This document shows, piece after piece, positions 14,906-30,551 of a stretch of 32,000 bases of DNA. The notes under the pieces are model-generated. The model saw nothing but the letters and a program-made list of their open reading frames with translations, had not been told where the DNA came from and ran no database searches. The DNA is from an uncultured Bordetella sp. (lineage in GTDB: Bacteria; Pseudomonadota; Gammaproteobacteria; Burkholderiales; SG8-39), in NCBI GenBank assembly GCA_964599095.1, contig CAZREB010000017.1, positions 7,203 through 39,202 on the forward strand, written 5' to 3'. The first letter of the stretch is position 1. Each line of letters opens with the position of its first letter. A program made the position numbers and the translations under genes.

Positions 14906-14918
14906 GGTGTTTTCTCCT

Positions 14919-15059: not shown

Positions 15060-15096
15060 TAGCCTTCATCCACGCTGAATGCCCGGGAGCCCAGAC

Positions 15097-15699: not shown

Positions 15700-15774
15700 A
15701 TCGCTGCAGCGACGGGTTCGTTGCGCAAGGCGAGTTGGCGCCGAAGGAAAACGCCGGGCGGCTCGATGACGGCA

Positions 15775-15800
15775 GCGTCGGGAGACGATTCCCCCGACGC
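15775..15800. terminator. Possible hairpin between convergent genes
   Basis: 8-bp stem GCGTCGGG / CCCGACGC (15775-15782 paired with 15793-15800) with a 10-nt loop. It lies in the 105-nt gap between the DsrE2-like and tandem-TusA stops. There is no U-tract on either side. Confidence 0.3.
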
Positions 15801-15804
15801 CCGA

Positions 15805-16293
15805 TCAGGCCTTGCGGATATGGAACTCGTACTCTCCGGGCGCGACTTCACGGGTGTCGAGCAGTTTGTGGCCGGTGGCTTTTGCCCAACTGCGCAAGTC
15901 CGCCCGGATTCCCGAGCAATTTCCGAGAAGACGAAGCACCTCGCCTTTGCGCATGCCGTCCAGCAGCTTCTTTGCCTCGATGATCGGACCAGGACAAGTT
16001 GCTCCGCGCATATCGAGTACGGAATTCGGTGACACCCGGCCGCCCTTGCCTTTGCGAATGTAATAACCGAACCCGCCTTGGGGCCGCTTCGCGACCTTCA
16101 GCACCTCGACATCGCTATACTTGGGCCACGAGCGCAGATCGTCCCGGGTGGCCGGGCAATCGGAAATCAGCAACATGACTTCGCCCGCAAGCAGTTCGTC
16201 GAGGACTCTCTTGGCGCCGAGCAGCGGACCTGGACAGGCGAGCCCCGAAAGGTCGAGGGTGAGATGCGGTTTCGGAAGGGCCGATTTGGCCAT
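15805..16293 (-). CDS. Tandem (two-domain) TusA-family sulfur carrier, 162 aa
   Basis: I chose the ATG at 16293; the rest of the 472-aa track ORF is Arg-rich shadow. There are two TusA modules, each with a CPxP motif: 'LDLSGLACPGPLLGAKRVL' and 'LDMRGATCPGPIIEAKKLL'. Each is followed by a parallel '...DLRSW.K' segment. Confidence 0.85.
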   Translation of the reverse strand: MAKSALPKPHLTLDLSGLACPGPLLGAKRVLDELLAGEVMLLISDCPATRDDLRSWPKYSDVEVLKVAKRPQGGFGYYIRKGKGGRVSPNSVLDMRGATCPGPIIEAKKLLDGMRKGEVLRLLGNCSGIRADLRSWAKATGHKLLDTREVAPGEYEFHIRKA

Positions 16294-16338
16294 GGGCGCC
16301 CCCTTCGGTGCGGCATTTGCTCGCAACACTATACACAG

Positions 16339-17364
16339 ATGATGCAAAATTTTCCGCAGATCGCGAGTACGGTGCAGCGTAACTGCGACATCTCCGATGC
16401 ACGCCACGCGGGGGACTACGGCCTGTGCATATTCCTGCTCAAGATGCGCGAGTTCTATCGCTGGGAGAACGAACTGCCGTTCGCGCGTAAGCTTTCGAAG
16501 GAGCAACTTGGCGAATGGCTGGCGGCCCGCGAGCAACTGTGGGACGGCATCGAGTCGGACGAGTTCCTTCCGCTCCCGCTTGCGAACCGTGAGATTGACC
16601 CGTTCGACGTCGATACTGCCAATCGCGCATTGCTGCCCCACGGCTACGTTTACAGCGCTGGCTTGGGACGCTTTGGTAAGCCGGTGTTCTTCCTCGGCGA
16701 GCTGCAGCGGGTAGAAACGAGATCGGGTTGCACGGTGCTCGTATCGTCTTGCGAGCACGCGCGCGAACTGGCCGCACCGCCCGCGATGCTGCAAGGACGG
16801 ACGATCTTTCTGCGGCAGGAGTCGTTGCGCCGCTACCTGTGGGAAAAGATCGAGGATTGGCAGTGGCACAGGCGGGACAACGCCACGGGGCGCGCCATGG
16901 CCCGCTATGGATTCGTCGCGGACCCTGAGGCGGCTCTGCGGCGCATGGCCGAAGATGCCGCCGAAGCGATGATTCTTCATGAGGTCGGCGAAGCCATGGC
17001 GGGAGCGCTGATCGGCGACGAGTGGCACGATCGGGTGCTGGCCGGAACGAATCCGCAGGTCGAATCGCTTGCGCGGTCGGTCCGCGACCTGCTCGCCGAC
17101 TGCCTGTCTACCTTGCCTGCGCTGATCAGGAATCCCGACGCGAAAGTGCTGCACCTTTACTTTGCCACCCTGGACGCGCCGCGTCGCCAAATGTTCCCCG
17201 AGGTGCTCGATGCCTACGAGCACTTTGTGCTTTCAGGCGCGCGCGACCGCTTGTCGCGACTCGCAAGCGAGGGCGCGGAACACTGGCTGTCGGTTGCGCG
17301 AGGCCTCGTGGCACTCGATCCGCCCGCTCTCGAGGCCACGCTGAAGGCGTTGGTCAGAGGATGA
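16339..17364 (+). CDS. Conserved-looking hypothetical protein (341 aa), family not recognised
   Basis: The ATG at 16339 is the first start downstream of the divergent tandem-TusA gene. The composition looks coding ('GDYGLCIFLLKMREFYRWENELPF...') and a rhodanese gene follows on the same strand. The start is uncertain (another ATG lies at 16444). Confidence 0.6.
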   Translation: MMQNFPQIASTVQRNCDISDARHAGDYGLCIFLLKMREFYRWENELPFARKLSKEQLGEWLAAREQLWDGIESDEFLPLPLANREIDPFDVDTANRALLPHGYVYSAGLGRFGKPVFFLGELQRVETRSGCTVLVSSCEHARELAAPPAMLQGRTIFLRQESLRRYLWEKIEDWQWHRRDNATGRAMARYGFVADPEAALRRMAEDAAEAMILHEVGEAMAGALIGDEWHDRVLAGTNPQVESLARSVRDLLADCLSTLPALIRNPDAKVLHLYFATLDAPRRQMFPEVLDAYEHFVLSGARDRLSRLASEGAEHWLSVARGLVALDPPALEATLKALVRG

Positions 17365-19407: not shown

Positions 19408-20001
19408 ATGACGTTCTCCGGCGGCAGGCTGCGTGAAATCAGGCCGCTCAGCTTCATCTACGAGGCGGTCGAGGCACTGCCGGCCGACGTCTGCACCGAA
19501 GTGATCCGGCGGTTCGAATCGCTGGCCGACCAGCAATACCGCGGCCGCATCGGCGAGGGCGGGATGGAGGCCCCCGCGGTCAAGCGCTCGACCGACTTGC
19601 ATATAAGCGGGCGCGACGGCTGGAGCGACATCGACCGGACGTTGGCGCGGCAACTCGTATTGGCACTCAATGCGCTTGCCGGCGAATTTCCGTTCTTCGC
19701 CGCCAATTCGTTCAAGGACCTCGGTTACAACATACAGCGAACGCTGCCGGGGGAGTTCTATCACTGGCACGTGGACTCGGGGCCGGGAGCATTCAGCCAG
19801 CGCCAGCTGGTCGCAATCTGGTACCTGAACGATGTCCCGGGTCCCGGCGGAGAAACCGAGTTTCCGCTCCAGCAGGTCTTGATCCGGCCGGCACAGGGCA
19901 AGCTGGTCCTGTTCCCGCCTTTCTGGACGCATGTACACCGCGGCGTCACGCTGCAGGCAGGCGTCAAGTACATTGCCACCACGTGGATCAGTTTTGCCTG
20001 A
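19408..20001 (+). CDS. 2OG-Fe(II) oxygenase superfamily protein (prolyl-4-hydroxylase-like)
   Basis: The HxD...H facial triad sits in the expected context: 'FYHWHVDSG' ... 'LVLFPPFWTHVHRGV'. The double-stranded beta-helix signature 'LVAIWYLNDVPGPGGETEF' is also present. Confidence 0.8.
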   Translation: MTFSGGRLREIRPLSFIYEAVEALPADVCTEVIRRFESLADQQYRGRIGEGGMEAPAVKRSTDLHISGRDGWSDIDRTLARQLVLALNALAGEFPFFAANSFKDLGYNIQRTLPGEFYHWHVDSGPGAFSQRQLVAIWYLNDVPGPGGETEFPLQQVLIRPAQGKLVLFPPFWTHVHRGVTLQAGVKYIATTWISFA

Positions 20002-20013
20002 ACGGAGCAGACT

Positions 20014-20688
20014 TTGCTGCTAGCGATTCCGAAGGTCCTCAAACCCGATGAGCTGCAGCTAGCGCGCGCGTGGCTTGCCGACGCCCCGTTCGTCGACGGG
20101 CGATTGTCGGCAGGGTCCGCGGCGCAGAGGGTGAAGAGCAATCAGGAGGTCGATCGAACCGCACCGGACCTGGAGCGGCTCAACCGCCTTGTCATGGGCA
20201 ACCTCGTGCGCCACCCGCTCTATCGCGCGGGAGCGCTTCCGTTGCATGTGGCCAGCCCGTTCTATGCGCGTTGTCGCCCAGGCATGGCGTACGGAGATCA
20301 CCTCGACGACCCGATCATGGGAGCGGATGGCGTAATGTATCGGTCGGATATCGCCGTCACGGTATTTCTGTCGGCGCCCGAGGAGTACGATGGCGGTGAG
20401 CTTGTCATTCGCGCTGCGGCGGGCGAGCGAGCGGTCAAGTCGGCGGCGGGCGATGCCGTGCTCTATCCGGCGAGCAGTATCCACCATGTCAATCCGGTGA
20501 CGCGCGGCGAGCGCCTGGTGGCGGTGACTTGGTTGCAGAGCCTGGTGCGCGATCCCCTGCGGCGCGAATTGCTTTTCGGGCTCAACGAGGCACGCGAGAG
20601 CCTCCTGAGGCGTGAGCCTGATGCGCCGGAGACCGCGCAAGTCAGTGCCGCGTACATGAACCTGATTCGCATGTGGTCGGATATTTGA
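20014..20688 (+). CDS. PKHD-type Fe(II)/2OG hydroxylase (PiuC/YbiX family)
   Basis: TTG start with GGAG 6 nt upstream. The N-terminus 'MLLAIPKVLKPDELQLARAWLADAPFVDGRLSAG' is characteristic of the PiuC/YbiX family. 'YGDHLDDP' (HxD) and 'SSIHHVNPVTRGERL' (distal His/Arg) are present. Confidence 0.85.
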   Translation: MLLAIPKVLKPDELQLARAWLADAPFVDGRLSAGSAAQRVKSNQEVDRTAPDLERLNRLVMGNLVRHPLYRAGALPLHVASPFYARCRPGMAYGDHLDDPIMGADGVMYRSDIAVTVFLSAPEEYDGGELVIRAAAGERAVKSAAGDAVLYPASSIHHVNPVTRGERLVAVTWLQSLVRDPLRRELLFGLNEARESLLRREPDAPETAQVSAAYMNLIRMWSDI

Positions 20689-20696
20689 GGTTTGCG

Positions 20697-20999
20697 ATGA
20701 CCAATACGGAACATTCAATCGAGGCAAGGATCCTGCAGGCGGTAAAGCTGACGCTCGCGGGCGTGATCAGGGACACCGCCACGCCCCACGGCATGCGCCA
20801 TCCCCTTTCCGACTCCACCATCGCGGACATGCGCCAGTGCCTGGTGCTCATCAGCGCGCGCGAGCGCGAACTGGCGCAAGAAGGCGACCGGCAGCCCGTC
20901 GAGCGCCCGCGGTTCGCCGACGAGCCGGCCAGCGGGCAATGCGGCGACAAGGTGATCCACTTTCACAAGGGAACGCCCTCCGGCAACCCGCGAGGCTAG
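20697..20999 (+). CDS. Small hypothetical protein (100 aa) preceding the S24 peptidase gene
   Basis: ATG at 20697 with GAGG 6 nt upstream, 8 nt after the piuC-like stop. 'IEARILQAVKLTLAGVIRDTATPHGMRHPLSDSTIADMRQCLVLISARERELA' looks like an ordered helical domain with a disordered tail. Confidence 0.5.
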   Translation: MTNTEHSIEARILQAVKLTLAGVIRDTATPHGMRHPLSDSTIADMRQCLVLISARERELAQEGDRQPVERPRFADEPASGQCGDKVIHFHKGTPSGNPRG

Positions 21000-21016
21000 A
21001 CTGCAATGGAGTCTCA

Positions 21017-21331
21017 ATGAGCCAGGACAACTGCAGCTCGATCGAACCCTATGCCCTGCAGGTGCTGGGCGACAGCATGGAACCCGAGTTCGCCGACGGT
21101 TGCGTCGTCATCGTGGATCCCGGCTACGCACCTCGTGACGGCAGTTTCGTGATCGTGGAGTTCGCCGGCGACATCTTCTTCCGCCAGCTGCTCATCGAAG
21201 GCGAGCGGCGCTTCCTGAAGCCTCTCAACCCGAAGTACGGAGGCTTCGAACTGACTCCGCCCTTTACGATCCTGGGCGGTGTGGTGCAGCGCGCCGGCCG
21301 CAGGCGCTCCGAGCGCAGGCACTACGCGTAA
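21017..21331 (+). CDS. Stand-alone S24 (LexA/UmuD-type) peptidase domain protein, no HTH domain (104 aa)
   Basis: ATG at 21017 with GGAG 5 nt upstream. The catalytic Ser motif 'LQVLGDSMEPEF' and the downstream Lys context 'RRFLKPLNP' are present. The whole protein is only the size of the peptidase domain. Confidence 0.8.
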   Translation: MSQDNCSSIEPYALQVLGDSMEPEFADGCVVIVDPGYAPRDGSFVIVEFAGDIFFRQLLIEGERRFLKPLNPKYGGFELTPPFTILGGVVQRAGRRRSERRHYA

Positions 21332-21337
21332 GCCGGT

Positions 21338-21679
21338 TCAGTACCCGCCCTTGCGAAGGCTCTCCGGCAGGCCGGCGATCTTTCCAGCCTGCTTGGAAGG
21401 ATTTCCCGGGAAAAGGTCGAATAGCGTCTTGTTGTCGACTTTCCGGTCCGGCCATTTCTCCTGCATCGCCTTGAGCATCGCGCGGTTGTTCGGTTGCTCG
21501 CCGTTGTGGTTCAGGAAGGCGTCGCGCAGATATTCGATCACGTCCCAGTGGTCCGGTGTGAGAGTCAGGCCTTCCGATGCGGCGATCGCCTCGGCGACTT
21601 CGCGGTCCCATTCGTCGTGCGAGACCAGGTAGCCGTTCTCGGTCGTTTCCAGCACCTTGCCTTTGATCTCGTATGCCAT
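21338..21679 (-). CDS. TusE/DsrC/DsvC-family protein lacking both conserved C-terminal cysteines (DsrC paralogue, 113 aa)
   Basis: ATG at 21679 with a GAGGAA RBS. 'GYLVSHDEWDREVAEAIAASEGLTLTPDHWDVIEYLRDAF' and '...LFDLFPGNPSKQAGKIAGLPESLRKGGY' align along their length with the bona fide DsrC at 27910-28242 ('...[26 protein letters not shown]'). Confidence 0.85.
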   Translation of the reverse strand: MAYEIKGKVLETTENGYLVSHDEWDREVAEAIAASEGLTLTPDHWDVIEYLRDAFLNHNGEQPNNRAMLKAMQEKWPDRKVDNKTLFDLFPGNPSKQAGKIAGLPESLRKGGY

Positions 21680-21690
21680 GGTTTCCTCGT

Positions 21691-22377
21691 CTAGAAAGAA
21701 TCCGACCTGTGGCCCAGGTCGTCGATGTTCTTGTGCGGGATGAACAGGCCGAAGCCGAGCTTGCGCTCGATGCCCAGCCCTTGCTGCTGGAGCAGCAGCG
21801 ACTGGTCCCGGGTAAGACCGGCAAGCATGAGGCTGCGCGCGAGCAGGGCGCGCCCGGGTGTCGTCACCTGCGTGCTGCGACCGCACACTCTGGTGCATTT
21901 CCGGATGCCGAGCGCCTCGAGTTGCTGATTCGCCGAAGACATGAACTGCGCCTCGTCGCCGCTCTGGCCGAAGATCACCCCGCGCGAGTACAACGTGGTG
22001 ATGCGCGACAGCGGCTTCACCGACAGACGGTCGATGCGCAATGGCCAGCCGGCTACCTGCAGGGTGGCGCCAAGCAGGGTTGAAGCCGCCTCGACGCGGT
22101 GCCGCGGCAGGCGCAGCGAAAGCTTTGCCCTATGGGAGAGCTGCAGCAGGTCCTCGGGCGACTCGGGGCGCATCCAGCCGCTGCCCGACCCGGCACCGTG
22201 GATCAGATGCAGGCCCGCTCGCGGCTCGTCCGCGAACCATGGAAGGGCATCGTGAATCGCTTGCGACAGGGCATACGCATGGTCGACCGGCAGGCACCGG
22301 CACGAAATGCCGAAGACCGCATCGACGATATCCGCGAGGGGGGCGGGTCCGGCGGCGGCGTCCGCTTCCATTTGCAC
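21691..22377 (-). CDS. Cas6/Cmx6-like RAMP-superfamily protein (orphan; no CRISPR array or other cas genes in the window)
   Basis: 228 aa. The N-terminus 'VDAVFGISCRCLPVDHAYALSQAIHDALPWF', the '...LSLRLP...' segment and the C-terminal Gly-rich loop 'QQQGLGIERKLGFGLFIPHK' match my recollection of the type I-MYXAN Cas6/Cmx6 pattern and of RAMP G-loops generally. The start is either GTG at 22377 or ATG at 22371. Confidence 0.5.
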   Translation of the reverse strand: MQMEADAAAGPAPLADIVDAVFGISCRCLPVDHAYALSQAIHDALPWFADEPRAGLHLIHGAGSGSGWMRPESPEDLLQLSHRAKLSLRLPRHRVEAASTLLGATLQVAGWPLRIDRLSVKPLSRITTLYSRGVIFGQSGDEAQFMSSANQQLEALGIRKCTRVCGRSTQVTTPGRALLARSLMLAGLTRDQSLLLQQQGLGIERKLGFGLFIPHKNIDDLGHRSDSF

Positions 22378-22382
22378 CTGGT

Positions 22383-23105
22383 TCAGTCCACGGGCAGGAC
22401 GGCCTGCAGGGCCTCACGGTCGAACCACCATTCGTCCTGCACCAGCACGTCGACCACGTTGCGCAGGCGCGGAAGGAACCGCCCCGGGTCGTCGAGCTCC
22501 ATGCGCTCGATCCAGCGATTGAAGTCCTCCTGGCCCGCGACGCCGCTATGGCGGCGGGCGACCGTCGCAAGCAACTGGCTGGCATAGATCAGCAGGTGTT
22601 CGCGTTGCGGCTCCTGTGCCCGCAAATCGACCAGGTAGTAGGCAGTGACCGCCGCGACCGCTGCGCCGTCAGCGTCGGGCGGCGTTTCATCGACCACGTG
22701 CTGGAGCAGCGCGACGCTCAGTTCGGGATCCATCGGGTAAGTGACGGCCAGCCATATCCCCTGGCCGAGGGCGGCGAGAGACTGCGGTTGGTCGCAGACG
22801 AACAGGATGTCGCATGCCTGTGCCGCGCCTTCCCAAGCCTGAGCGGCAAGGTACAAGTCGACCGCCTCCCGCGCCGCCGTCCAGGCCTCGGAATGCGCTT
22901 CGAGCCGCACGAGAGCGCGGCCGAGCTGCAGCAGCAGGTCGGCTCGACGCAGTGGATCGGCCCTTGTCGACAGGGCCGCGAGTTGCTCGCGATGGTCTGC
23001 GACCAGGCGCTTGAGCAGGCCGGTCGATTCCTTGGCATCCTCGATGCTGTCGGCGTTGCCGACCGCGCGATCTTCCTTGATGTACTTGAGGGGGATGTGT
23101 TTCAT
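22383..23105 (-). CDS. Hypothetical all-helical protein (240 aa), family not recognised
   Basis: I chose the ATG at 23105 ('MKHIPLKYIKEDRAV...'); the upstream part of the track ORF overlaps the TauD-like gene. The protein is Ala/Leu-rich, helical-repeat-like and acidic. It is tightly packed between the TauD-like and Cas6-like genes. Confidence 0.6.
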   Translation of the reverse strand: MKHIPLKYIKEDRAVGNADSIEDAKESTGLLKRLVADHREQLAALSTRADPLRRADLLLQLGRALVRLEAHSEAWTAAREAVDLYLAAQAWEGAAQACDILFVCDQPQSLAALGQGIWLAVTYPMDPELSVALLQHVVDETPPDADGAAVAAVTAYYLVDLRAQEPQREHLLIYASQLLATVARRHSGVAGQEDFNRWIERMELDDPGRFLPRLRNVVDVLVQDEWWFDREALQAVLPVD

Positions 23106-23127
23106 GAGTCGAGGCTGGTTTCTTCGC

Positions 23128-24105
23128 CTAGGACAATGGCGTGTCGGAGGGGGCGACGCGATCGGAGTAGCGGGCTCGATAGACCAGCCTGGACTGGCCG
23201 GGCTCGTCGCCGAACGCACTGCGATTGTGGAGCACGTTGTTGCATACGAGGCCCTGCCCGGCCTCGAGCCGCAACTTGAAAACGTGCGGTGAACCGGCAT
23301 CGAAAATGCGGCCCAGGAACGCCGTTGCTGCGCGCGTGACTTCATCCGGACGCCACCTCACGCTGCGCGTGCGCGCGGTATAGCGCATATGGATCCGGCC
23401 GCCGTGGGTCGAAAATACGGGACCGACGCAGGCGGCGCGAATTTCACTGCCGTCCACGACATTGGCGGGGATCGTCATTGCGTCAGGCGCTGTGAGCGCC
23501 TTGACGTATTCGGGGTCCGCGTCGCGCAACAGGATGTAGGCGATTTCGGGATCGAGCAGGCAATTTTCTCCTCCAGAAGCGGCGGGCTGGACACAATGGA
23601 GAATGAAGGCGCAAATGCGTTCCGGCGGCCGGATGTAATAGCCATCCGTATGCCAAAGCAGGCGCTGGTTCGAATAAGGGATGTAGCCCGCGGCGGACTT
23701 TTCCGGTACGGCCTTAAGCGAGCTTACGCCATCCTCGTCCGCGAGCGGGTTCGCATGCAGGTGAGCAAGGCCCAGACATTCGCCCAATCGGAGAGGTATG
23801 GCCTTGTCAGGCACGCCCGCAAGGGGGGTCGAGTAGACCGCCATGTTGGCGACCTCGCAGATCCGTCGAATCTCGCCTACCTCGGCCGCCGTGGGATTGA
23901 GCGGGTCGCGGACCTCGACGACCAGATCTTCCGTGCGGGTCGGGTAGCGGGCCAGCTTGCGCTCACGCCAGCGCAGGTAGTCCTGCGGCCGGTCGAACGG
24001 CAGGTCGATGTCAATCGGCAGCGGAGCGTTCAAGGGTCGCGGGCCAAGCGGCGCAGAGATACAGGGATCGGAACATACCGCAACGGTGTCGAGTGGCGCA
24101 CGCAC
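23128..24105 (-). CDS. TauD/TfdA-family Fe(II)/2-oxoglutarate dioxygenase
   Basis: 'QRLLWHTDGYY' (HxD), 'SGGENCLLD', and 'LVCNNVLHNRSAF' (distal His plus the 2OG-binding Arg) occur in the order expected for the TauD fold. The GTG start at 24105 is uncertain; an internal TTG is possible. Confidence 0.8.
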   Translation of the reverse strand: MRAPLDTVAVCSDPCISAPLGPRPLNAPLPIDIDLPFDRPQDYLRWRERKLARYPTRTEDLVVEVRDPLNPTAAEVGEIRRICEVANMAVYSTPLAGVPDKAIPLRLGECLGLAHLHANPLADEDGVSSLKAVPEKSAAGYIPYSNQRLLWHTDGYYIRPPERICAFILHCVQPAASGGENCLLDPEIAYILLRDADPEYVKALTAPDAMTIPANVVDGSEIRAACVGPVFSTHGGRIHMRYTARTRSVRWRPDEVTRAATAFLGRIFDAGSPHVFKLRLEAGQGLVCNNVLHNRSAFGDEPGQSRLVYRARYSDRVAPSDTPLS

Positions 24106-24327
24106 CGCGATCGCAATTACAGGGGCGACAGAATCACTCGGCTTGGCAGGCAGTGCGCGGGCAATCGCCTAAGAATCAATGGTATCCGCCGGCTCGCGCG
24201 TTCGAGGCTATCTCCAAAGAGATGTATTGCTGCGGTGCGGTCCCCTCCCAATGAGTTCTTCGGCCGCGCGCGGGCGCCTCGTTACACTGGCGCGGCACAA
24301 TGCAGATCGTTTGTTTGGAGGTATCCC

Positions 24328-25653
24328 GTGTCCGACCCGAAAAAGCAGCCCAAGAATCCCGAGCGGCACAGCACCTTTATTCCAATCGAGAAGAAGTCGA
24401 CCAAGCCGTTTCATCCTACGCCGATGCTCGACCAGCTCGAGAGCGGGCCCTGGCCCAGCTTCGTTACCGGGCTCAAGCGTCTGGCGCACGAAAACAACAT
24501 GATGGTCGATCTGCTGGGACAGCTGGAGCATTCCTACAAGACCCGCCTGGGGTACTGGAAGGGCGGTACCGTATCGGTGTTCGGATACGGCGGCGGCATC
24601 ATCCCGCGCTTTTCGGAAGTTGCCAGCATGTTCCCGGAGTCCAAGGAATTCCATACGCTGCGCGTGCAGCCACCGGCGGGCAACCACTACACCACCAAGC
24701 TGCTGCGGCGGCTTTCGGATTCCTGGAACAAGTGGGGGTCCGGCCTGATCGCGTTTCACGGCCAGACGGGGAACATCATGTTCATCGGCACCACGACCGA
24801 GAACACGCAGCATTTCTTCGATGAAATCAACGAGTACGGCTTCGATCTTGGCGGGGCCGGCCCCTGCGTGCGCACCGCGATGTCGTGCGTCGGCGCCGCG
24901 CGCTGCGAGCAGTCCTGTACCAACGAGCACCGGATCCACCGCACGCTGGTCAACAACTTCATCGATGACATGCATCGCCCGGCACTGCCCTACAAGTTCA
25001 AGTTCAAGGTCTCGGGCTGCCCGAACGACTGCATGAACTCGATCCAGCGCGCCGACTTCGCCGTGATCGGCACGTGGCGCGACGCCATGCAGGTCGACCA
25101 GGCGGAGGTCAAGTCCTACGTGGCGAGCCACGGCCGCAAGTACACGATCGACAATGTGATCGCGCGCTGCCCCACCAAGGCGCTGTCTCTCAACGACGAC
25201 GATACTCTGGAAGTGGACAATCGCAGTTGCGTGCGTTGCATGCACTGCATAAACGTCATGACCCGGGCGCTGAAGCCCGGCAAGGACCGGGGCATCACGC
25301 TGCTGATCGGTGGCAAGCGCACCCTCAAGATCGGCGACACCATGGGCACCGTCATCATCCCGTTCATGAAGATGGACACCGACGAGGACTACGAGAAACT
25401 GCGCGATCTGGCTGCCACGGTGGTCGATTTCTGGGCGGAGAACGGCCTGGAGCACGAGCGCTGCGGCGAGATGATCGAGCGCATCGGGCTGGCGAATTTC
25501 CTGGAAGGCATCGGGGTGGAAGTCGACCCCAACATGATCAGCCATCCGCGCACAAGCTCGTACGTTCGGTTGGACGATTGGGATGCGGAAGCCGAAAAAT
25601 GGGTCGCGCGCCATGGCGGCGGCAAAGCGGGCGAAAACGCCCCGCAGGCGTAG
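24328..25653 (+). CDS. dsrA: Dissimilatory sulfite reductase alpha subunit, oxidative (reverse) type
   Basis: GTG at 24328 with a GGAGG RBS 6 nt upstream. 'GPWPSFVTGLKR', 'GYWKGGTVSVFGYGGGIIPRF', the siroheme/FeS Cys cluster 'MSCVGAARCEQSC...SGCPNDC' and the ferredoxin insert 'CPTKAL...CVRCMHCINV' are present. The first 313 codons of the track ORF are a non-coding extension. Confidence 0.97.
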   Translation: MSDPKKQPKNPERHSTFIPIEKKSTKPFHPTPMLDQLESGPWPSFVTGLKRLAHENNMMVDLLGQLEHSYKTRLGYWKGGTVSVFGYGGGIIPRFSEVASMFPESKEFHTLRVQPPAGNHYTTKLLRRLSDSWNKWGSGLIAFHGQTGNIMFIGTTTENTQHFFDEINEYGFDLGGAGPCVRTAMSCVGAARCEQSCTNEHRIHRTLVNNFIDDMHRPALPYKFKFKVSGCPNDCMNSIQRADFAVIGTWRDAMQVDQAEVKSYVASHGRKYTIDNVIARCPTKALSLNDDDTLEVDNRSCVRCMHCINVMTRALKPGKDRGITLLIGGKRTLKIGDTMGTVIIPFMKMDTDEDYEKLRDLAATVVDFWAENGLEHERCGEMIERIGLANFLEGIGVEVDPNMISHPRTSSYVRLDDWDAEAEKWVARHGGGKAGENAPQA

Positions 25654-25676: not shown

Positions 25677-26777
25677 ATGGCACAGCAATCTGCAGCGGCG
25701 CCCGAAAAGAAGAAGATGCGCCCGCCCATCGAAAGCGGCTGCCCTGATGGCGTGCAGTACATGCATCCGCTCATGGTCAAGAATTTCGGCCAGTGGAAAT
25801 ACCATGACCGGCCGCGACCGGGGGTGCTTCATCACGTGGCCTACTCGGGCGATGAGATCTGGACGGTGCGCGTAGGCACGCAGCGCCAGCTCGGTCCTTA
25901 CGAGATCAACCTGTTGTGCGACATCGTCGACCAGTACGGCGAGGGGCACGTGCGCTTCACGATACGCTCGAACATGGAGGTGATGGTCTCCTCCTGGGAG
26001 AAGGTCGGGCCGTTGATCAAGGCCTTCAATGACGCCGGTTATCCGGTGGGCGGGACCGGAAACTCGGTGACCATGATCTCGCACACCCAGGGCTGGCTGC
26101 ATTGCGACATTCCCGGCACCGACGCATCGGGCGTCGTCAAGTCCCTGATGGACGAGCTCTACGAGGAGTTCGTCAAGGAAGAGATGCCGAACCGCGTGCA
26201 TATCACTACGTCCTGCTGCCAGATCAACTGCGGCGGGCAGGGGGACATCGCGATCAATGTCCAACACACCAAGCCGCCGAAAATCAATCACGACCTCGTG
26301 GCGAACGTGTGCGAGAGGCCTTCGGTCGTGGCCCGCTGCCCGGTGGCGGCGATCCGTCCGGCGATCGTGAACGGCAAGCCGTCGCTCGAGGTCGACGAGA
26401 AGAAATGCATCTGCTGCGGCGCCTGCTATCCACCGTGCCCGCCGATGCAGATCAACGACCCGGAACATTCCAAGCTCGCAATCTGGGTGGGTGGGAAGAA
26501 CTCGAACGCCCGGTCCAAGCCGATGTTCCAGAAGCTGGTGGCCGCCGGCCTGCCGAACAATCCGCCACGCTGGCCGGAAGTCGCCGCGGTGGTGAAGAAG
26601 ATCCTGTACACCTACAAGAACGACGCCCGCGACTGGGAACGTGTCGGCGACTGGGTTGAGCGGATCGGCTGGCCGCGCTTTTTCGAGCTGACCGGGCTGC
26701 CGTTCACGAAATTCCACATCGACAACTGGCGCGGGGCACGCAACAGCCTCAACGCCTCAGCGCATATCCGCTTTTAA
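25677..26777 (+). CDS. dsrB: Dissimilatory sulfite reductase beta subunit, oxidative (reverse) type
   Basis: ATG at 25677 with an AGGAGG RBS. 'MHPLMVKNFGQWKYH', 'TSCCQINCGGQGD' and the ferredoxin domain 'CPVAAI...CICCGACYPPCP' are present. It starts 23 nt after dsrA. Confidence 0.97.
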   Translation: MAQQSAAAPEKKKMRPPIESGCPDGVQYMHPLMVKNFGQWKYHDRPRPGVLHHVAYSGDEIWTVRVGTQRQLGPYEINLLCDIVDQYGEGHVRFTIRSNMEVMVSSWEKVGPLIKAFNDAGYPVGGTGNSVTMISHTQGWLHCDIPGTDASGVVKSLMDELYEEFVKEEMPNRVHITTSCCQINCGGQGDIAINVQHTKPPKINHDLVANVCERPSVVARCPVAAIRPAIVNGKPSLEVDEKKCICCGACYPPCPPMQINDPEHSKLAIWVGGKNSNARSKPMFQKLVAAGLPNNPPRWPEVAAVVKKILYTYKNDARDWERVGDWVERIGWPRFFELTGLPFTKFHIDNWRGARNSLNASAHIRF

Positions 26778-26790
26778 GGCGCCCGCCGGC

Positions 26791-27183
26791 ATGAAATTCG
26801 GGATACTCGTCAACGAAGGGCCTTACACCCACGCGGCCTCGGACACGGCTTACCAGTTCGTCAAGGCGGCATTGGCTAAAGGGCACGAGATCTATCGCGT
26901 ATTCTTCTATCACGACGGCGTCAACAACGGAACTCGGCTTACCGTCCCGCCGCAGGATGACCGCAATATCGTCAAGCGATGGAGCGAACTGGCGGCGCAG
27001 CATAAACTGGACCTCGTTGTTTGCATTGCAGCGGCGCAGCGTCGCGGACTGATGGATGCGGCGGAAGCGAAACGCAATGGCAAGGATGCCGACAACATCG
27101 CGCCGGGATTCCGGATTTCCGGCCTTGGCCAACTGATCGAAGCGGGCATCCAGTCGGACCGGCTGGTCGTGTTCGGCGGCTGA
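26791..27183 (+). CDS. dsrE: Sulfurtransferase complex subunit DsrE
   Basis: 130 aa. 'MKFGILVNEGPYTHAASDTAYQF' and the active-site Cys context 'LVVCIAAAQRRGL' are present. Its position directly after dsrB fits. Confidence 0.93.
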   Translation: MKFGILVNEGPYTHAASDTAYQFVKAALAKGHEIYRVFFYHDGVNNGTRLTVPPQDDRNIVKRWSELAAQHKLDLVVCIAAAQRRGLMDAAEAKRNGKDADNIAPGFRISGLGQLIEAGIQSDRLVVFGG

Positions 27184-27194
27184 GGAGGGCACAA

Positions 27195-27578
27195 ATGACT
27201 GAGCAGGCCGAACCCGGCGCAGCGAAAAGGTTCCTGTACGTGAACACGAAGGCGCCCTACGGCACCATCTACGCGCTCGAGTCCCTCGAAGTCGTTCTCA
27301 TTGGTGCGGCATTCGATCAGGACGTGAGCCTCGCCTTCGTGGGCGACGGTGTATACCAGCTCGTGAAGGATCAGGACACCAAGGGTCTCGAAATGAAAAA
27401 TTTCTCGCCGACGTTCCGCGCTCTGGAGGATTACGACGTCACCAAGCTTTACGTCGAGCAGGAGGCTCTGGCGGCGCGAGGCCTCACCGAGGCCGACCTG
27501 GTGGTGCCGGTGGAGGCGGTCAGCGCGGAACGCATGGCTGAGATCATGGATAGCCAGGACGTGATCCTGACCTTTTGA
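27195..27578 (+). CDS. dsrF: Sulfurtransferase complex subunit DsrF
   Basis: ATG at 27195 with a GAGGAG RBS. 'FLYVNTKAPYGTIYALESLEVVLIGAAFDQDVSLAFVGDGVYQL' is typical of DsrF/TusC. It sits between dsrE and dsrH. Confidence 0.9.
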   Translation: MTEQAEPGAAKRFLYVNTKAPYGTIYALESLEVVLIGAAFDQDVSLAFVGDGVYQLVKDQDTKGLEMKNFSPTFRALEDYDVTKLYVEQEALAARGLTEADLVVPVEAVSAERMAEIMDSQDVILTF

Positions 27579-27589
27579 GGACCAAGGAC

Positions 27590-27889
27590 ATGCTGCATAC
27601 CGTCAACAAGTCGCCGTTCGAAGACAAGACGTTCGAGACCTGCCTGAAGTTCGCGAAGCGGGGCAGCTCGATCCTCCTAATCGAAGACGGAATATATGCG
27701 GCAGCCGCAGGCACGACCGTTGCGAAGCAGGTGCAGGATGCCTTGAGCCGGGTATCGATATACGCACTCAGACCCGACGTCGAGGCGCGCGGCATGCAGA
27801 ACCGGGTGATGGACGGCGTTCGCCTGGTGGACTATGGGGGGTTCGTCGATCTGGTGACCGAACACCACGCCGTACAAAGCTGGATTTGA
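27590..27889 (+). CDS. dsrH: Sulfurtransferase complex subunit DsrH
   Basis: ATG at 27590 with an AAGGA RBS. 'MLHTVNKSPFEDKTFETCLKFAKRGSSILLIEDGIYAA' carries the conserved Cys, as in DsrH/TusB. Confidence 0.9.
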   Translation: MLHTVNKSPFEDKTFETCLKFAKRGSSILLIEDGIYAAAAGTTVAKQVQDALSRVSIYALRPDVEARGMQNRVMDGVRLVDYGGFVDLVTEHHAVQSWI

Positions 27890-27909
27890 ACCTTGAGGGA
27901 AACCACGAA

Positions 27910-28242
27910 ATGCCTATCGAACTGAATGGCCAGAGCATTGAAACCGACGAGGAAGGTTATCTCGCCAACCGCGCGGACTGGTCCGAGCAAGTGGGAAAGG
28001 AAATGGCCCGGATCGACGGCTGCGAATTGACCGACAGCCACTGGGAGGTGATCAACTTCCTGCGCGAGTACTACGACGAATACCAGATCGCCCCTGCAGT
28101 CCGCGTGCTGACCAAGGCGATCGGGAAGAAACTGGGCGCCGACAAGGGCAACAGCAAGTACCTGTACGAACTGTTTCCCTATGGCCCCGCCAAGCAGGCC
28201 TGCAAGTACGCGGGGCTGCCCAAGCCTACCGGCTGCGTGTAG
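27910..28242 (+). CDS. dsrC: DsrC sulfur carrier / DsrAB substrate-donating protein, with both conserved cysteines
   Basis: ATG at 27910. 110 aa ending in 'PAKQACKYAGLPKPTGCV', the canonical CysB-X10-CysA-Val C-terminal arm. Confidence 0.95.
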   Translation: MPIELNGQSIETDEEGYLANRADWSEQVGKEMARIDGCELTDSHWEVINFLREYYDEYQIAPAVRVLTKAIGKKLGADKGNSKYLYELFPYGPAKQACKYAGLPKPTGCV

Positions 28243-28283
28243 GGACCGGACTCGCCGGGTTCCCCGTCGCCCCTTCGTCGAAT

Positions 28284-29060
28284 GTGCCGCGTCGGAACCT
28301 GGAGAATGCGTTGTCGGTGCTGACCGTCCTTTACGCGGTGCTCTTGTATTTCGCGTTCGCCATGCTCGTCGTCGGCGTGGGCTACAAGTGCTGGGTGTAC
28401 GCACGCACGCCGCAGCCGCTCAGGATCCCGGTCCCGCCGGCGCCGACGACCCGCCGGGGTGTCGTGCTGCGCCTGCTTTTCGAGGTCACGTTCTTCAGGG
28501 CGCTGTTCCGCTCGAACAAGTGGATCTGGCTGTTCGGATGGGTCTTTCACGTGGCGCTTTTCGCGGTGCTGATGAGGCACTTGCGCTACTTCGCCGACCC
28601 GGTATGGGGCTGGGTGGTGATGATCCAGCCAATCGGACTGTACGCAGGGTTTGCCATGCTGGTGGGCCTCGCCGGCCTCTGGGCAAGGCGCCTGCTGGTC
28701 GACCGGGTTCGCTTCATAAGCAGCCCCTCCGACCACCTGATGCTGGCCCTGCTGGCGGCGATTGTCGTGAGCGGACTGACCATGAAGTATCTGGCGCACA
28801 CGGATATCGTTTCGCTGAAGGCCTTTGTCCTTGGCCTCATGGTCTTCGACTGGCGTGAGCTCCCGGCGGACCCGGCGCTGCTGGTCCACCTTGCTCTGGT
28901 CGCGATCCTGATGATCGTATTCCCGTTGAGCAAGCTGCTGCACGCGCCGGGCGTGTTCTTCAGCCCGAGCCTCAACCAGGTCGACGATGCACGCGAGAGG
29001 CGGCATGTGGCTGGATGGTCTGCACAGATCGTCCATGCCGATCGGGTGCGGAGCGGCTGA
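28284..29060 (+). CDS. dsrM: DsrM, NarI-like dihaem cytochrome b membrane subunit of DsrMK(JOP)
   Basis: 258 aa with about 5 TM helices and conserved His residues ('GWVFHVALFAVLMRHLRYF', 'SDHLML', 'LLHAPG') as in NarI/HdrE-type proteins. The GTG start is uncertain by a few codons. The stop abuts the dsrK ATG. Confidence 0.9.
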   Translation: MPRRNLENALSVLTVLYAVLLYFAFAMLVVGVGYKCWVYARTPQPLRIPVPPAPTTRRGVVLRLLFEVTFFRALFRSNKWIWLFGWVFHVALFAVLMRHLRYFADPVWGWVVMIQPIGLYAGFAMLVGLAGLWARRLLVDRVRFISSPSDHLMLALLAAIVVSGLTMKYLAHTDIVSLKAFVLGLMVFDWRELPADPALLVHLALVAILMIVFPLSKLLHAPGVFFSPSLNQVDDARERRHVAGWSAQIVHADRVRSG

Positions 29061-30551
29061 ATGGCTGCCTTCGAAACGCCGCCGCTGGGCGAGTATCCGG
29101 TCATTCCACTGGTGCGCGAAGGTGCGATGGCGCACAGCAAGCCGTTTCTGGCCAAGCCGGAACACCAGACGGGGCTCGGGTTCCCCGGCGAACTGGTGCA
29201 CGACTGGGAGAAGGTCGCGGTCACCAGGCTCGGCCAGCTCGTGTCACAGTCGCGGGGGTTGCAGGTGTTTCTCGATGCCTGCGTGAAGTGCGGCGCCTGC
29301 ACCGACAAGTGCCACTACTTCCTCGGCACTTCGGACCCGAAGAACATGCCGGTGGCCCGCCAGGACCTCCTGCGCTCGGTCTATCGCCGCTACTACACGT
29401 TCGCCGGCAGGCATTTTCCGAAGCTCGTGGGCGCCCGCGACATGACCAAGGAGGTGCTCGACGAGTGGTACAGCTATTACCACCAGTGCTCTCAGTGCCG
29501 ACGCTGCGCGGTGTTCTGCCCGTACGGGATCGATACCGCCGAGATCTCGATGGCCGCGCGCGACATCATGGACAGCGTCGGCGTCGGCCAGAAGTATTCC
29601 AACGAGATCATCGGCAAAGTCCACAAGATCGGCAACAATCTCGGCCTGCCGGAACCGGCCCTGCGCAACACGCTGGACGGTCTGGAAGAGGACGTGAAGG
29701 ACGAGACCGGGGTGGATGTAAAGTTCCCGCTCGATGTCAAGGGCGCCGAAGTCCTGCTCATCACGCCCAGCGCGGACTTTTTCGCCGAACCGCACATCGA
29801 TGGGCTGATCGGATATGCCAAGGTATTTCACGCCGCGGGCATCTCCTGGACGCTGTCGTCGCACGCCTCCGAGGCCGCGAACTTCTCGCTCTTCATCGGC
29901 AATCACGACAATCTGCAGAAGGTGGCCACGCGCATACGCGATGCCGCGCTCGAACTGGGTGTCAAGCGCATCGTGGTGGGCGAGTGCGGACATGCGTGGC
30001 GCGTTGCCTACAGCTTCTGGAACACGTTGATCGGGCCATTCGATTTTCTCGATCCGCACTACCCGGCGCCGCAGCATATCTGCGAGCTGACCTACGACCT
30101 CATCCAGCGCGGCGCGCTGACGCTCGACAAGGCGGCAAATGACGACAAGGTGGTGACCTTCCACGATTCCTGCAACGTGTCGCGCGGATCGCGCATGGGT
30201 GACATGCCGGGAGGGCAGTTCCGCATTCCGCGCGAGATCATCCGCGCTTGCGTCAACAAGTTCGTCGACATGGCGCCTGAAACGATCGGTGAAACCACCT
30301 TTTGCTGCGGCGGTGGCGGTGGCCTGCTTACCGACGACCTGGTCGAACTGCGGGTCAAAGGTGCGCTGCCGCGCATGCAGGCCCTCCAGCGCGTGGTCGA
30401 GGAGGAAGGTGTGAATTACATGGCCGCGATCTGCGCCATCTGCAAGAGCCAATTCACCAAGGTTTTGCCTTATTACAAGCACCCCATGGACATGATCGGC
30501 AGCGTGCATGGGCTCGTGAGCAAGGCGATCGTGCTGAAGCCCGGGAATTGA
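29061..30551 (+). CDS. dsrK: DsrK, HdrD-like FeS/CCG-domain catalytic subunit
   Basis: The ATG lies immediately after the dsrM TGA. Two ferredoxin-type motifs, 'CVKCGACTDKC' and 'CSQCRRCAVFCP', are present, along with CCG-domain motifs 'DSCNVSRG' and 'TFCCGGGGG'. Confidence 0.93.
   Translation: MAAFETPPLGEYPVIPLVREGAMAHSKPFLAKPEHQTGLGFPGELVHDWEKVAVTRLGQLVSQSRGLQVFLDACVKCGACTDKCHYFLGTSDPKNMPVARQDLLRSVYRRYYTFAGRHFPKLVGARDMTKEVLDEWYSYYHQCSQCRRCAVFCPYGIDTAEISMAARDIMDSVGVGQKYSNEIIGKVHKIGNNLGLPEPALRNTLDGLEEDVKDETGVDVKFPLDVKGAEVLLITPSADFFAEPHIDGLIGYAKVFHAAGISWTLSSHASEAANFSLFIGNHDNLQKVATRIRDAALELGVKRIVVGECGHAWRVAYSFWNTLIGPFDFLDPHYPAPQHICELTYDLIQRGALTLDKAANDDKVVTFHDSCNVSRGSRMGDMPGGQFRIPREIIRACVNKFVDMAPETIGETTFCCGGGGGLLTDDLVELRVKGALPRMQALQRVVEEEGVNYMAAICAICKSQFTKVLPYYKHPMDMIGSVHGLVSKAIVLKPGN

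Follow-up and report, generated by a model that had tools for sequence, protein, structure and literature searches.

In the 32-kb stretch of DNA analysed here (the window), a Cas6-like gene, which we call Cas6L, is very probably a CRISPR-independent offshoot of the Cas6/Cmx6 family that became a domesticated accessory gene of the oxidative (reverse) Dsr system in Beta- and Gammaproteobacteria, where it sits in a small operon divergent from dsrAB. The protein is a full-length member of its family, far beyond chance. It matches Pfam PF09559 (Cas6) with 188 bits (E 1.9e-55; cut-off 26.7) over positions 1-191 of the 191-position profile, scores 118.4 bits against NCBIfam TIGR02807 (cas6_cmx6; cut-off 98.85) and matches PADLOC Cas6 models with E down to 3e-54. 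The original prediction had read the protein as a Cas6/Cmx6-type RAMP, quoting two peptides, LPVDHAYALSQAI and GLGIERKLGFGLFIPHK; both are found in the translation, and the assignment is borne out by the two profiles, each above its cut-off. The open reading frame (21691-22377, minus strand) gives 228 residues when read from the program-listed GTG at 22377. The start is more likely the ATG at 22371, which gives 226 residues, because an AGGTG Shine-Dalgarno sequence lies 5 nt upstream; the database copy P0001 is also 226 residues long. Relatives turned up in at least 586 of the species genomes scanned, and more than 1,500 clusters of homologous proteins were recovered; public records name these homologues "type I-MYXAN Cas6/Cmx6". 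Complete or nearly complete genomes with Cas6L include OZ252002.1, OZ244046.1, OY730298.1, OZ251487.1 and CAVRDW010000005.1.

In the AF2 model of Cas6L (pLDDT 88, pTM 0.83), the order beta-alpha-beta-beta-alpha-beta is predicted twice, corresponding to two tandem ferredoxin-like (RRM) domains. A Foldseek search with this model returned only Cas6, Cas6e or CRISPR effector-complex entries among its top 45 PDB matches, the best being the Cas6 of a type I-B CAST (8fcu_B/8fcj_B, TM 0.79-0.84); the duplicated fold of Cas6 structures is thus present. P. furiosus Cas6 (3PKM) and T. thermophilus Cas6e/Cse3 (2Y8W) have the same overall architecture (Foldseek E 1e-9 to 1e-6) at 11-14% sequence identity. 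Metal-independent Cas6 enzymes carry a catalytic His near the junction of strand 1 and helix 1, and their glycine-rich loop holds the RNA. The C-terminal glycine-rich loop that had been noted earlier is present in Cas6L as GLGIERKLGFG, residues 198-208, and its four glycines are 92-96% conserved over 144 clusters at 50% identity. Across the same clusters, Arg87 is conserved in 100%, Arg81 and Glu140 in 99%, Gly65 in 95%, Lys214 in 93%, Trp66 in 92%, His31 in 89% and His213 in 82%. Such conservation is consistent with a maintained binding or active site and not with a relic in decay. According to the secondary structure of the AF2 model, helix 1 begins at His31, and His213-Lys214 adjoin the glycine-rich loop. 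The His at the strand 1-helix 1 junction and the basic residue at the loop appear to be placed like the catalytic residues of 3PKM and 2Y8W, a placement judged from predicted secondary structure; the active-site equivalence is putative.

The Cas6/Cmx6 proteins of type I-B ('I-MYXAN') systems and of type I-B CRISPR-associated transposons belong to the same Pfam family over its full length. They have in common with Cas6L the tandem ferredoxin-like fold (TM 0.79-0.84 to chain B of 8FCJ/8FCU), a length of about 220 residues, invariant Arg87, Arg130 and Phe143, and, towards the C-terminus, a glycine-rich loop that leads into a hydrophobic strand. The identity is only 22-27%, however. Position 31 is His in Cas6L and Asn in Cmx6. 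Cas6L carries a 10-residue 'SGNGWxRP' insert with an invariant Gly-Trp that is missing from Cmx6, and residues 62-65 of this loop insert are predicted to be flexible (pLDDT <50). Conversely, the basic 8-residue insert of Cmx6 (GTPQRRQL...RGFG), which probably extends the RNA-gripping hairpin, is absent from Cas6L. The loop region reads GxGx5GxG-PHK in Cas6L and GxGGx6G-P(A/S) in Cmx6. The signatures of CRISPR-linked Cmx6, namely the LDN motif, the GTPQRRQL insert, the GIGGKxKMMCG loop and no GW insert, are not those of Cas6L. Among close Cas6L proteins, the GW motif and the glycine-rich-loop pattern are present in 120 of 120 and the PHK and DH motifs in 118-119 of 120; none of 114 Cmx6 proteins carries the Cas6L motifs. 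The median pI is 6.1 for the Cas6L clade, compared with 9.2 for genuine Cmx6, and the net charge of the clade is mostly -1 to -9, near-neutral or acidic. The operon partners of Cmx6, Cas8 (DevT/Cmx8), Cas7 (DevR) and Cas5 (DevS), do not occur beside Cas6L; a genuine Cmx6 used as a positive control lies in a TniQ / Cas6-DevT-Cas7-Cas5 locus (Cas5d).

As had been stated from inspection by eye, the 32-kb window contains neither a CRISPR array nor another cas gene. TRF and an interspaced-repeat search found no tandem or interspaced repeat array in it, Rfam gave no match at gathering thresholds and no CRISPR-DR at E<=5, and Cas6L alone matched a cas model when the 117 window ORFs of at least 100 aa were scanned against PADLOC. 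Two neighbouring oxygenases matched a PADLOC model labelled '2OG, CAS-associated'; this model is a generic 81-position 2OG domain, and the matches were not counted as evidence. Related loci (80 species genomes; 85 loci, 1.3 Mb) likewise showed no confirmed array and no cas gene within 10 kb. The array screen of the 85 loci was a k-mer screen, in which three loci were flagged. In L042 and L060 the apparent arrays are tandem or dispersed repeats of an ordinary kind in Beggiatoaceae, without cas genes beside them, and the repeat flagged in L067 has three copies about 7 kb downstream of Cas6L.

Features of the window around Cas6L
Feature	Coordinates	Strand	Basis or remark
2OG-Fe(II) oxygenase	19408-20001	plus	convergent neighbour block 19408..21331
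2OG-Fe(II) oxygenase, PKHD/YbiX-type	20014-20688	plus	convergent neighbour block
LexA-like S24 regulator, split into two ORFs	20673-20999 + 21017-21331	plus	convergent neighbour block
DsrCL, DsrC/TusE-family paralogue, 113 aa	21338..21679	minus	PF04358 111 bits, TIGR03342, DsrC structures
Cas6L, Cas6-like gene	21691..22371	minus	family matches, Cas6 fold, Shine-Dalgarno before ATG, database copy length
hyp240, conserved 240-aa protein	22383..23105	minus	no family assignment; kept in 57/76 loci
TauD/TfdA-family Fe(II)/2OG dioxygenase ('dsrQ'-type)	23128..24033	minus	PF02668 64 bits; 301-aa gene call
Operator-like direct repeats, dsrA/dsrQ divergent promoter region	24208..24253	minus	TCTTTGGAGATAG 24208-24220; degenerate copy CATTGGGAGGGGA 24241-24253
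dsrA	GTG 24327 or ATG 24349 to 25653	plus	NIR_SIR domains; divergent from Cas6L operon
dsrB	about 25680-26777	plus	NIR_SIR domains
dsrE, dsrF, dsrH, dsrC, dsrM, dsrK (remainder of oxidative dsr operon in window)	26791..30551	plus	
dsrC	27886-28242	plus	ends ...PKPTGCV

The original prediction placed the gene in a sulfur-metabolism operon. Cas6L does adjoin dsr, but it belongs to a minus-strand four-gene operon divergent from dsrA and not to the dsr operon itself. The four genes, TauD-like, hyp240, Cas6L and DsrCL, are separated by gaps of 11-22 nt; hyp240 stops 11 nt before the Cas6L start and DsrCL starts 11 nt after the Cas6L stop. The gaps and the Shine-Dalgarno sites indicate co-translation of Cas6L with both neighbours. 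Elsewhere, too, Cas6L usually shares its operon with the TauD-like dioxygenase ('DsrQ'), the helical TPR-like protein and the DsrC paralogue without cysteines. The dsrQ-type gene is the first of the divergent operon (its program-listed ORF extends to 24105), and its product gave weak betaine/TML dioxygenase-like matches. In Loffler (2020), which cites Lenk et al. (2012) for the name, 'dsrQ' is a tauD-like gene upstream of and divergent from dsrA in chemotrophic sulfur oxidisers. For hyp240, profile and PDB sequence searches found no sequence family and no PDB match; it has 3408 homologues, the top 120 at 82-100% identity. Its AF2 model (pLDDT 79) is all-helical with weak TPR-like fold matches (E ~0.02), and no relation to Cas8 or Cas11 was seen. 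DsrCL is a cysteine-less paralogue in the recognised DsrC/TusE/RspA family. DsrC proper has two C-terminal cysteines (C-x10-C-x); DsrCL lacks both, contains no cysteine at all and ends in ...AGLPESLRKGGY. The RKGGY C-terminus and the lack of Cys are kept in 71 of 71 relatives. TusE, a DsrC homologue, works in a tRNA-modifying complex, and thus the DsrC family has a precedent beside RNA.

The arrangement around Cas6L was compared in 80 species-level genomes of Beta- and Gammaproteobacterial sulfur oxidisers, in which Cas6L identity ranges from 44 to 69%. Cas6L is divergent to dsrAB in 64 of the 67 informative loci and is followed by DsrCL in 70 of 73, making the cysteine-less DsrC paralogue its most constant partner; a TauD-like gene is present at the locus in 65 of 76, hyp240 in 57 of 76, and at least one 2OG-Fe(II) oxygenase of the kind in the convergent block lies within 10 kb of the module in 39 of 51. 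One related locus (Cas6L 64% identical) has a TauD-hyp240-Cas6-DsrC unit divergent to dsrABEFHCMKL, and two relatives at 33% identity are also dsrAB-linked and divergent to dsrAB. Synteny with dsrAB, kept across two proteobacterial classes, strongly backs the earlier suggestion of an exaptation into a sulfur-metabolism locus. DsrAB of the window is 93-95% identical to that of related loci; at locus L001 the corresponding values are 93-95% for DsrAB, 78-82% for hyp240 and DsrCL and 64% for Cas6L. Judged by sequence identity, Cas6L evolves faster than its neighbours. About ten loci have an unrelated 131-aa gene between Cas6L and DsrCL, and strict co-transcription of the two is therefore not universal. 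Both 'dsrQ' and cysteine-less DsrC/TusE/RspA-family paralogues are dsr-associated accessory genes with which Cas6L has its locus in common. In the papers that could be searched, the tauD-like gene is the one that is named; none of those found mentions the Cas6-family gene beside it, the TPR-like gene or the DsrC paralogue ending in RKGGY, and our literature search found no paper linking Cas6 with dsr.

The synteny bears on whether Cas6L could be a displaced CRISPR gene that lies at dsr by accident and processes pre-crRNA, in trans, for a CRISPR-Cas system in another part of the genome. Cas6L exceeds the NCBIfam equivalog cut-off of type I-MYXAN Cas6/Cmx6 and carries this name in public records, our searches of the source genome cover the 32-kb window, and type III systems are known to draw on a Cas6 provided in trans (Makarova et al., 2025). 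Against this, the divergent position is retained in several orders and even at 33% identity, no confirmed array and no cas gene lies within 10 kb among 80 loci, and Cas6L differs systematically from CRISPR-linked Cmx6. CRISPR-Cas systems, by comparison, are patchy and mobile. Because the dsr position is kept in 64 of 67 loci and the signatures are clade-specific, a displaced cas gene is very unlikely. Other Cas genes outside adaptive immunity, such as Cascade in CRISPR-associated transposons, array-less type IV / 'type U', solo Cas4 and Cas1, resemble Cas6L as CRISPR-Cas components without an adaptation module or array, and exaptation of such components is a recognised trend (Makarova et al., 2025). 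Those cases are tied to mobile elements or defence and keep the guide-RNA logic; Cas6L, in contrast, is a single Cas6 inside a core energy-metabolism locus and is inherited with that locus.

Our leading guess for its function, offered tentatively, is that Cas6L binds, and perhaps cuts, a specific cellular RNA through its Cas6 surface, acting in post-transcriptional dsr control. The RNA-binding surface would be retained in the intact glycine-rich loop and the conserved Arg81, Arg87 and Arg130, and His31 with His213-Lys214 would form a putative His/Lys active site. The outcome may be control of dsr expression or of a sulfur-relay-linked RNA, with the DsrC paralogue as partner or effector and the TPR protein as scaffold. 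The more specific proposal, that Cas6L is an active sequence-specific endoribonuclease from a type I-B-like CRISPR system, complexed with the cysteine-less DsrC paralogue as a regulator or maturation factor of reverse Dsr, seems to us rather doubtful. Searches for an RNA partner in cis, by inverted repeats in 21200-24400 and by Rfam to E<=5, found nothing, and no conserved hairpin or repeat was seen near Cas6L or in the dsr intergenic spacers. All-versus-all BLASTN of dsrA-upstream intergenic regions from 72 loci returned within-lineage similarity only. In Burkholderiales relatives dsrA has a leader of only about 30-40 nt, and 13-40 nt separate the dsr genes of the window. The original prediction that Cas6L may process hairpins in the long dsr polycistron is therefore unsupported, though not refuted, given the lack of a conserved hairpin, the short leader, the tiny gaps and the clade's median pI of 6.1. 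Against an RNA mechanism in general we counted the low pI, the lost basic insert, the lack of an RNA element, the short leader and gaps, the faster evolution and the intervening 131-aa gene.

The divergent promoter region contains two copies of a direct repeat (TTGGRGATAK), 34 nt apart. In 16 aligned Burkholderiales loci both copies have an invariant core, and the proximal copy lies about 23-25 nt upstream of the -10-like TTACACT. The exact pattern is almost confined to the dsrA/dsrQ site in 1.3 Mb of loci; gammaproteobacterial loci have weaker variants. We considered and rejected reading the repeats as a mini-array or a hairpin for Cas6: their core does not vary and shows no covarying stems, the length of the spacer does vary, and on the dsrA strand they occupy activator-like positions in the promoter. 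A conserved, operator-like pair exactly between dsrA and the Cas6L operon raises the question whether Cas6L, with or without the helix-turn-helix-bearing DsrC paralogue, binds these repeats and regulates dsr transcription. No other non-dsr genes at the locus are as constant as Cas6L and DsrCL, and the DsrC of Allochromatium vinosum reportedly binds DNA upstream of dsrA. We nevertheless consider this improbable: we know of no Cas6 that binds double-stranded DNA, the adjacent LexA-like S24 regulator in the Burkholderiales group is a more ordinary candidate for the operator, and the strong repeat is confined to that group and a few gammaproteobacterial loci (Thiohalobacter, Thiogranum), a much narrower range than that of Cas6L.

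A role without RNA is almost as likely as the RNA-binding one, because the pI is near neutral and no conserved hairpin lies nearby. Cas6L may have kept the tandem ferredoxin-like scaffold and lost its nucleic-acid function, acting, alongside the TPR-like protein and DsrCL, as a subunit of a dsr accessory complex where it would bind a protein or a small ligand. It could present or sequester the DsrCL arm (...RKGGY), modulate DsrAB or DsrEFH, or work as an O2-dependent switch with the TauD-like and PKHD-type dioxygenases. The shift in pI to about 6 with loss of the basic hairpin insert, the new, nearly invariant and predicted flexible Gly-Trp loop insert absent from Cmx6, the steady presence of a TPR-like scaffold and of a DsrC paralogue bearing an invariant C-terminal peptide, the three Fe(II)/2OG oxygenases within the conserved neighbourhood, and the failure of cis searches to find an RNA element all suggest such an adaptor. 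However, the glycine-rich loop, with which Cas6 proteins characteristically clamp RNA phosphates, remains 92-96% conserved, the arginines common to Cmx6 (R87, R130, R179) are retained, and His31, His213 and Lys214 resemble an acid-base site. To our knowledge there is no precedent for a Cas6 acting without RNA.

If Cas6L is indeed a domesticated dsr accessory gene, it would be a clean example of a lone Cas protein that left defence long ago and settled in a core metabolic locus. Its homologues are misleadingly labelled 'type I-MYXAN Cas6/Cmx6', and this label can inflate CRISPR-Cas counts and inferences of 'CRISPR-linked genes'. The oxidative Dsr system gains a conserved uncharacterised module, consisting of the TauD-like DsrQ, a TPR-like protein, Cas6L, the RKGGY-ended DsrC paralogue and the operator-like repeat of the dsrA promoter, which bears on its regulation and its link to oxygen and offers concrete genes for deletion. 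Were Cas6L an active endoribonuclease regulator, it would be the first Cas6 domesticated to control the energy metabolism of its host, and hundreds of sulfur-oxidising species would have a new conserved Dsr component.

Cas6L, the Cas6-like protein encoded on the minus strand at 21691-22377, has the Cas6 fold and belongs to a distinct clade that is inherited with oxidative dsrAB, stands outside any CRISPR context and carries a conserved putative site. Counted from the GTG, the open reading frame encodes 228 residues; translation from an ATG at 22371, two codons inside the frame and preceded by an AGGTG ribosome-binding site, agrees with the database copy of 226 residues. The original prediction of a Cas6/Cmx6-like protein cited two peptide strings, both of which are present in the translation, and profile searches bear it out. 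Three independent model sets match Cas6L over its full length: Pfam PF09559 'Cas6' (188 bits, E 1.9e-55, profile positions 1-191 of 191), NCBIfam TIGR02807 'type I-MYXAN Cas6/Cmx6' (118.4 bits, cut-off 98.85) and several PADLOC Cas6 models. Its only sequence relative in the PDB is 8fcj_B, the Cas6 of a type I-B CRISPR-associated transposon (E 5e-10, full length). The AlphaFold2 model, built from 22 diverse homologues (pTM 0.83, pLDDT 88), shows the expected duplicated fold, two beta-alpha-beta-beta-alpha-beta halves. Using Foldseek, the model matches 8fcu_B/8fcj_B at TM 0.79-0.84, and the further matches to rank 45 are Cas6, Cas6e and CRISPR effector-complex entries. Together, the profiles, the PDB relative and the model confirm the fold and family.

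No tandem or interspaced repeat array was detected in the window by repeat searches, and no tRNA was found there. Rfam gave no match in the window, with CRISPR-DR families absent even at E<=5. When all 117 window ORFs of at least 100 aa were scanned with PADLOC, only the Cas6L ORF matched a cas model; Pfam annotates the remaining large ORFs as rpoC, aldolase, GNAT, GST and sulfur-relay genes (TusA, DsrE2-like, sulfur transporter, DUF6866), with no cas gene among them. Thus, the proposed absence of an array and of other cas genes near Cas6L holds across the window. Two 2OG oxygenases in the window match a generic '2OG' model that PADLOC lists as CAS-associated; these matches are at the domain level only and were discounted as a CRISPR lead. 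The repeat screen of all 85 related loci (1.3 Mb) revealed no CRISPR array. A genuine cyanobacterial Cmx6 served as positive control; this CRISPR-linked Cas6 of type I-B/'I-MYXAN' systems sits in a TniQ / Cas6-DevT(Cas8)-Cas7-Cas5d locus. It is very unlikely that Cas6L serves a CRISPR system in trans.

Cas6L comes third in a minus-strand operon of closely spaced genes (gaps of 22, 11 and 11 nt), following dsrQ and the gene for the protein hyp240 and preceding that for DsrCL, a DsrC/TusE-family paralogue. The dsrABEFHCMK genes run divergently from it, on the plus strand from ~24327. The Cas6 gene had been placed within a sulfur-metabolism operon; it does lie in a dsr-adjacent operon with DsrCL, but outside the dsr operon itself. 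A tauD-like gene upstream of dsrA is the 'dsrQ' of chemotrophic sulfur oxidisers in a passage of Loffler et al. 2020 (PMC7596348) that cites Lenk et al. 2012. Downstream and convergent lie two 2OG-Fe(II) oxygenases and a LexA-like S24 regulator; counting the TauD-like DsrQ, three Fe(II)/2-oxoglutarate dioxygenases are grouped at the operon, as also seen in related loci. Each of them requires O2, a hint that the module is tied to oxygen. The regulator, split in the window, is a single 205-aa ORF in L001, a related locus from another genome; the same split is repeated in L002 and L003, on contigs from other sequencing runs, making a sequencing error unlikely. Upstream, at 13115-17364, is another conserved block of sulfur-relay genes, which also contains a sulfur transporter (PF04143) and TusA-domain ORFs; in the distant locus L087, the DUF6866 protein is a direct neighbour of Cas6L.

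Features of the Cas6L neighbourhood (positions in the window)
Feature	Position	Strand	Remarks
TauD/TfdA-family dioxygenase (dsrQ)	23128-24033	-	family match
hyp240, 240 aa	22383-23105	-	no Pfam, NCBIfam or PDB sequence match
Cas6L	21691-22371	-	PF09559, TIGR02807
DsrCL, 113 aa, DsrC family	21338-21679	-	family matches
LexA-like regulator (N-terminal domain + S24 peptidase)	20673-20999; 21017-21331	+	split in two frames
2OG-FeII_Oxy_3 oxygenases	19408-20001; 20014-20688		one PKHD/YbiX-type
DUF6866/Sfum_1244-family protein	16078-17364		sulfur-relay block
DsrE2-like protein	15079-15699		sulfur-relay block
Direct repeats TCWTTGGGGATAG / CCWTTGGRGATAK	24208-24253	-	dsrA/dsrQ divergent promoter

At E<=1e-5, a 90%-clustered collection yields over 1,500 homologues of Cas6L; at 50% identity, 879 clusters have E<=1e-3, 138 of them below 1e-30. 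When one genome was scanned for each GTDB species, relatives turned up in at least 586 genomes. In the best 80 of these they are 44-69% identical to Cas6L, and nearly all 80 are labelled as sulfur oxidisers (Burkholderiales and other betaproteobacterial MAGs, Acidiferrobacterales, Sulfuricaulis, Thiodiazotropha, Thiogranum, Thiohalobacter, Beggiatoaceae); a few MAGs are labelled Bacteroidota, Ca. Methylomirabilis or Nitrospiraceae. Synteny was counted by tblastn of the window proteins against the loci of these 80 genomes. On the opposite strand, dsrA lies within 6 kb upstream of Cas6L in 64 of 67 loci, and a DsrC paralogue follows on the same strand in 70 of 73, within 200 nt in 58. A TauD-like gene accompanies Cas6L in 65/76 loci, hyp240 is immediately upstream in 57/76, and one of the 2OG oxygenases is within 10 kb in 39/51. 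The three loci without a divergent dsrA are from Beggiatoaceae, where dsr is not inside the fetched flanks; none has cas neighbours, and one retains the adjoining DsrC paralogue. Two distant members (33% identity) are both divergent to dsrAB, but their companions differ in part: one has DUF6967 and DUF6866, the other TauD and small ORFs. From the synteny, the lack of arrays and the Cmx6 control, what this lineage consistently keeps is its linkage to oxidative dsrAB rather than any tie to CRISPR. Relative to the window, L001 is 64% identical in Cas6L, 78% in hyp240, 82% in DsrCL and 93-95% in DsrAB; Cas6L changes faster than its neighbours. In ~10 betaproteobacterial loci (L009, L011, L014, L019, L021, L026, L028, L031, L032 and L034), a conserved gene of ~131 aa (MFNPITLPFGAKMLFNTVKLKPG...) lies between Cas6L and DsrCL, on the opposite strand in 9/10, and co-transcription of the two is therefore not universal.

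DsrCL contains no cysteines and ends in AGLPE(S/T)xRKGGY in 71/71 loci (within L001 and L006-L085), whereas the true DsrC of the window ends in AGLPKPTGCV. Judged from its sequence, DsrCL cannot carry sulfur in the manner of DsrC. That this C-terminal arm is invariant yet carries no redox cysteines points to a conserved site for docking or modification, for which hyp240 or the adjoining dioxygenases are possible partners. The 3408 homologues of hyp240 include a top 120 that are 82-100% identical. Structure prediction (pLDDT 79) gives a repeat protein made entirely of helices, with no more than weak TPR-like structural neighbours (E ~0.02); hyp240 is plausibly a peptide-binding scaffold.

Cas6L and genuine Cmx6 are 22-27% identical in alignment. 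The 'VDH' of Cas6L (His31) is 'LDN' in Cmx6; Cas6L has a 10-residue insert, 'SGNGWxRP', with an invariant Gly-Trp, and lacks the basic 8-residue insert of Cmx6 (GTPQRRQL...RGFG). Its C-terminus reads GxGx5GxG-F-PHK, compared with GIGGKxKMMCG-F-P(A/S) in Cmx6. These motifs occur in 0/114 full-length Cmx6; among close Cas6L, the GW motif and glycine-rich-loop pattern are present in 120/120 and the PHK and DH motifs in 118-119/120. Over 144 Cas6L clusters at 50% identity, Arg87 (100%), Arg81 and Glu140 (both 99%), Gly65 (95%), Lys214 (93%), Trp66 (92%), His31 (89%, Tyr in a further 8%), Arg130 (88%), His213 (82%) and the glycines of the loop (92-96%) are kept. This is the pattern of a putative functional site under selection; the much less basic character of the clade (median pI 6.1, versus 9.2 for Cmx6) counts against it. 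Fold and profile place Cas6L in the Cas6/Cmx6 family, whereas its genomic context and signature residues are not those of a type I-MYXAN Cas6 'equivalog'. The TIGR02807 equivalog cut-off fails to tell dsr-linked Cas6L from CRISPR-linked Cmx6, and NCBI/JGI name dsr-linked homologues 'type I-MYXAN CRISPR-associated protein Cas6/Cmx6' or 'CRISPR-associated protein Cas6' (public records P0038, P0069, P0107, P0394, P0398 and P0198). Through the dsrAB linkage and these signatures, comparative genomics supports well the proposed exaptation of a Cas6 fold into a sulfur-metabolism locus.

Candidate RNA substrates were sought around the locus. The spacer upstream of dsrA has no conserved nucleotide block common to different lineages, and no significant inverted repeats surround the Cas6L operon. 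In Burkholderiales relatives the dsrA leader, from a -10-like TTACACT to the start codon, is ~30-40 nt, and gaps within the window's dsr operon are 13-40 nt. The dsrA/dsrQ spacer contains a direct-repeat pair, TC(A/T)TTGGGGATAG and CC(T/A)TTGG(A/G)GATA(T/G), with equivalents at L008:6789-6880 and counterparts in 16 Burkholderiales loci. The cores are invariant in the 16 aligned loci and the window, the spacing is mostly 32-34 nt (22-25 nt in two loci), and within 1.3 Mb of loci the exact 10-mer hardly occurs anywhere else; gammaproteobacterial spacers have weaker, partly palindromic variants (CCCATATGGGATA). The proximal repeat lies ~23-25 nt upstream of TTACACT on the dsrA strand. Given the invariant cores and promoter position, an RNA element was set aside, and the sequence pattern is probably that of an activator or operator site of a dsr regulator. 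That Cas6L itself binds DNA at these operator repeats is improbable.

Tentatively, our best guess is that Cas6L still binds a specific RNA, held by the glycine-rich loop and the conserved arginines, and that His31 and His213/Lys214 may act in cutting this RNA; alongside the DsrC paralogue, Cas6L would serve the Dsr system as a post-transcriptional regulator or maturation factor. TusE, a DsrC relative, acts in a tRNA-modifying complex, giving some precedent for DsrCL beside an RNA-acting Cas6L. Nearly as likely, though still doubtful, is an adaptor role: the scaffold would now bind a protein or ligand, partnered by the TPR-like protein and the RKGGY arm, and the three dioxygenases might join them in a circuit that depends on O2. 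In favor of such an adaptor are the shift in pI, the loss of the basic hairpin insert, the gain of the Gly-Trp loop and the failure to find an RNA element around Cas6L and dsr in spacers, inverted repeats or leaders. For RNA binding by Cas6L, the specific mechanism originally proposed, processing of the dsr polycistron, is speculation with evidence both ways.

That CRISPR components can be exapted is well recognised, and the known cases are still tied to mobile elements or defence. In the full text of open-access papers and bioRxiv, we found no report of a Cas6-family gene linked to dsr; at the dsr locus, only the adjacent tauD-like 'dsrQ' is described there. The Cas6L gene is widespread, conserved and mis-annotated, and it connects dissimilatory sulfur oxidation with a family of CRISPR proteins.
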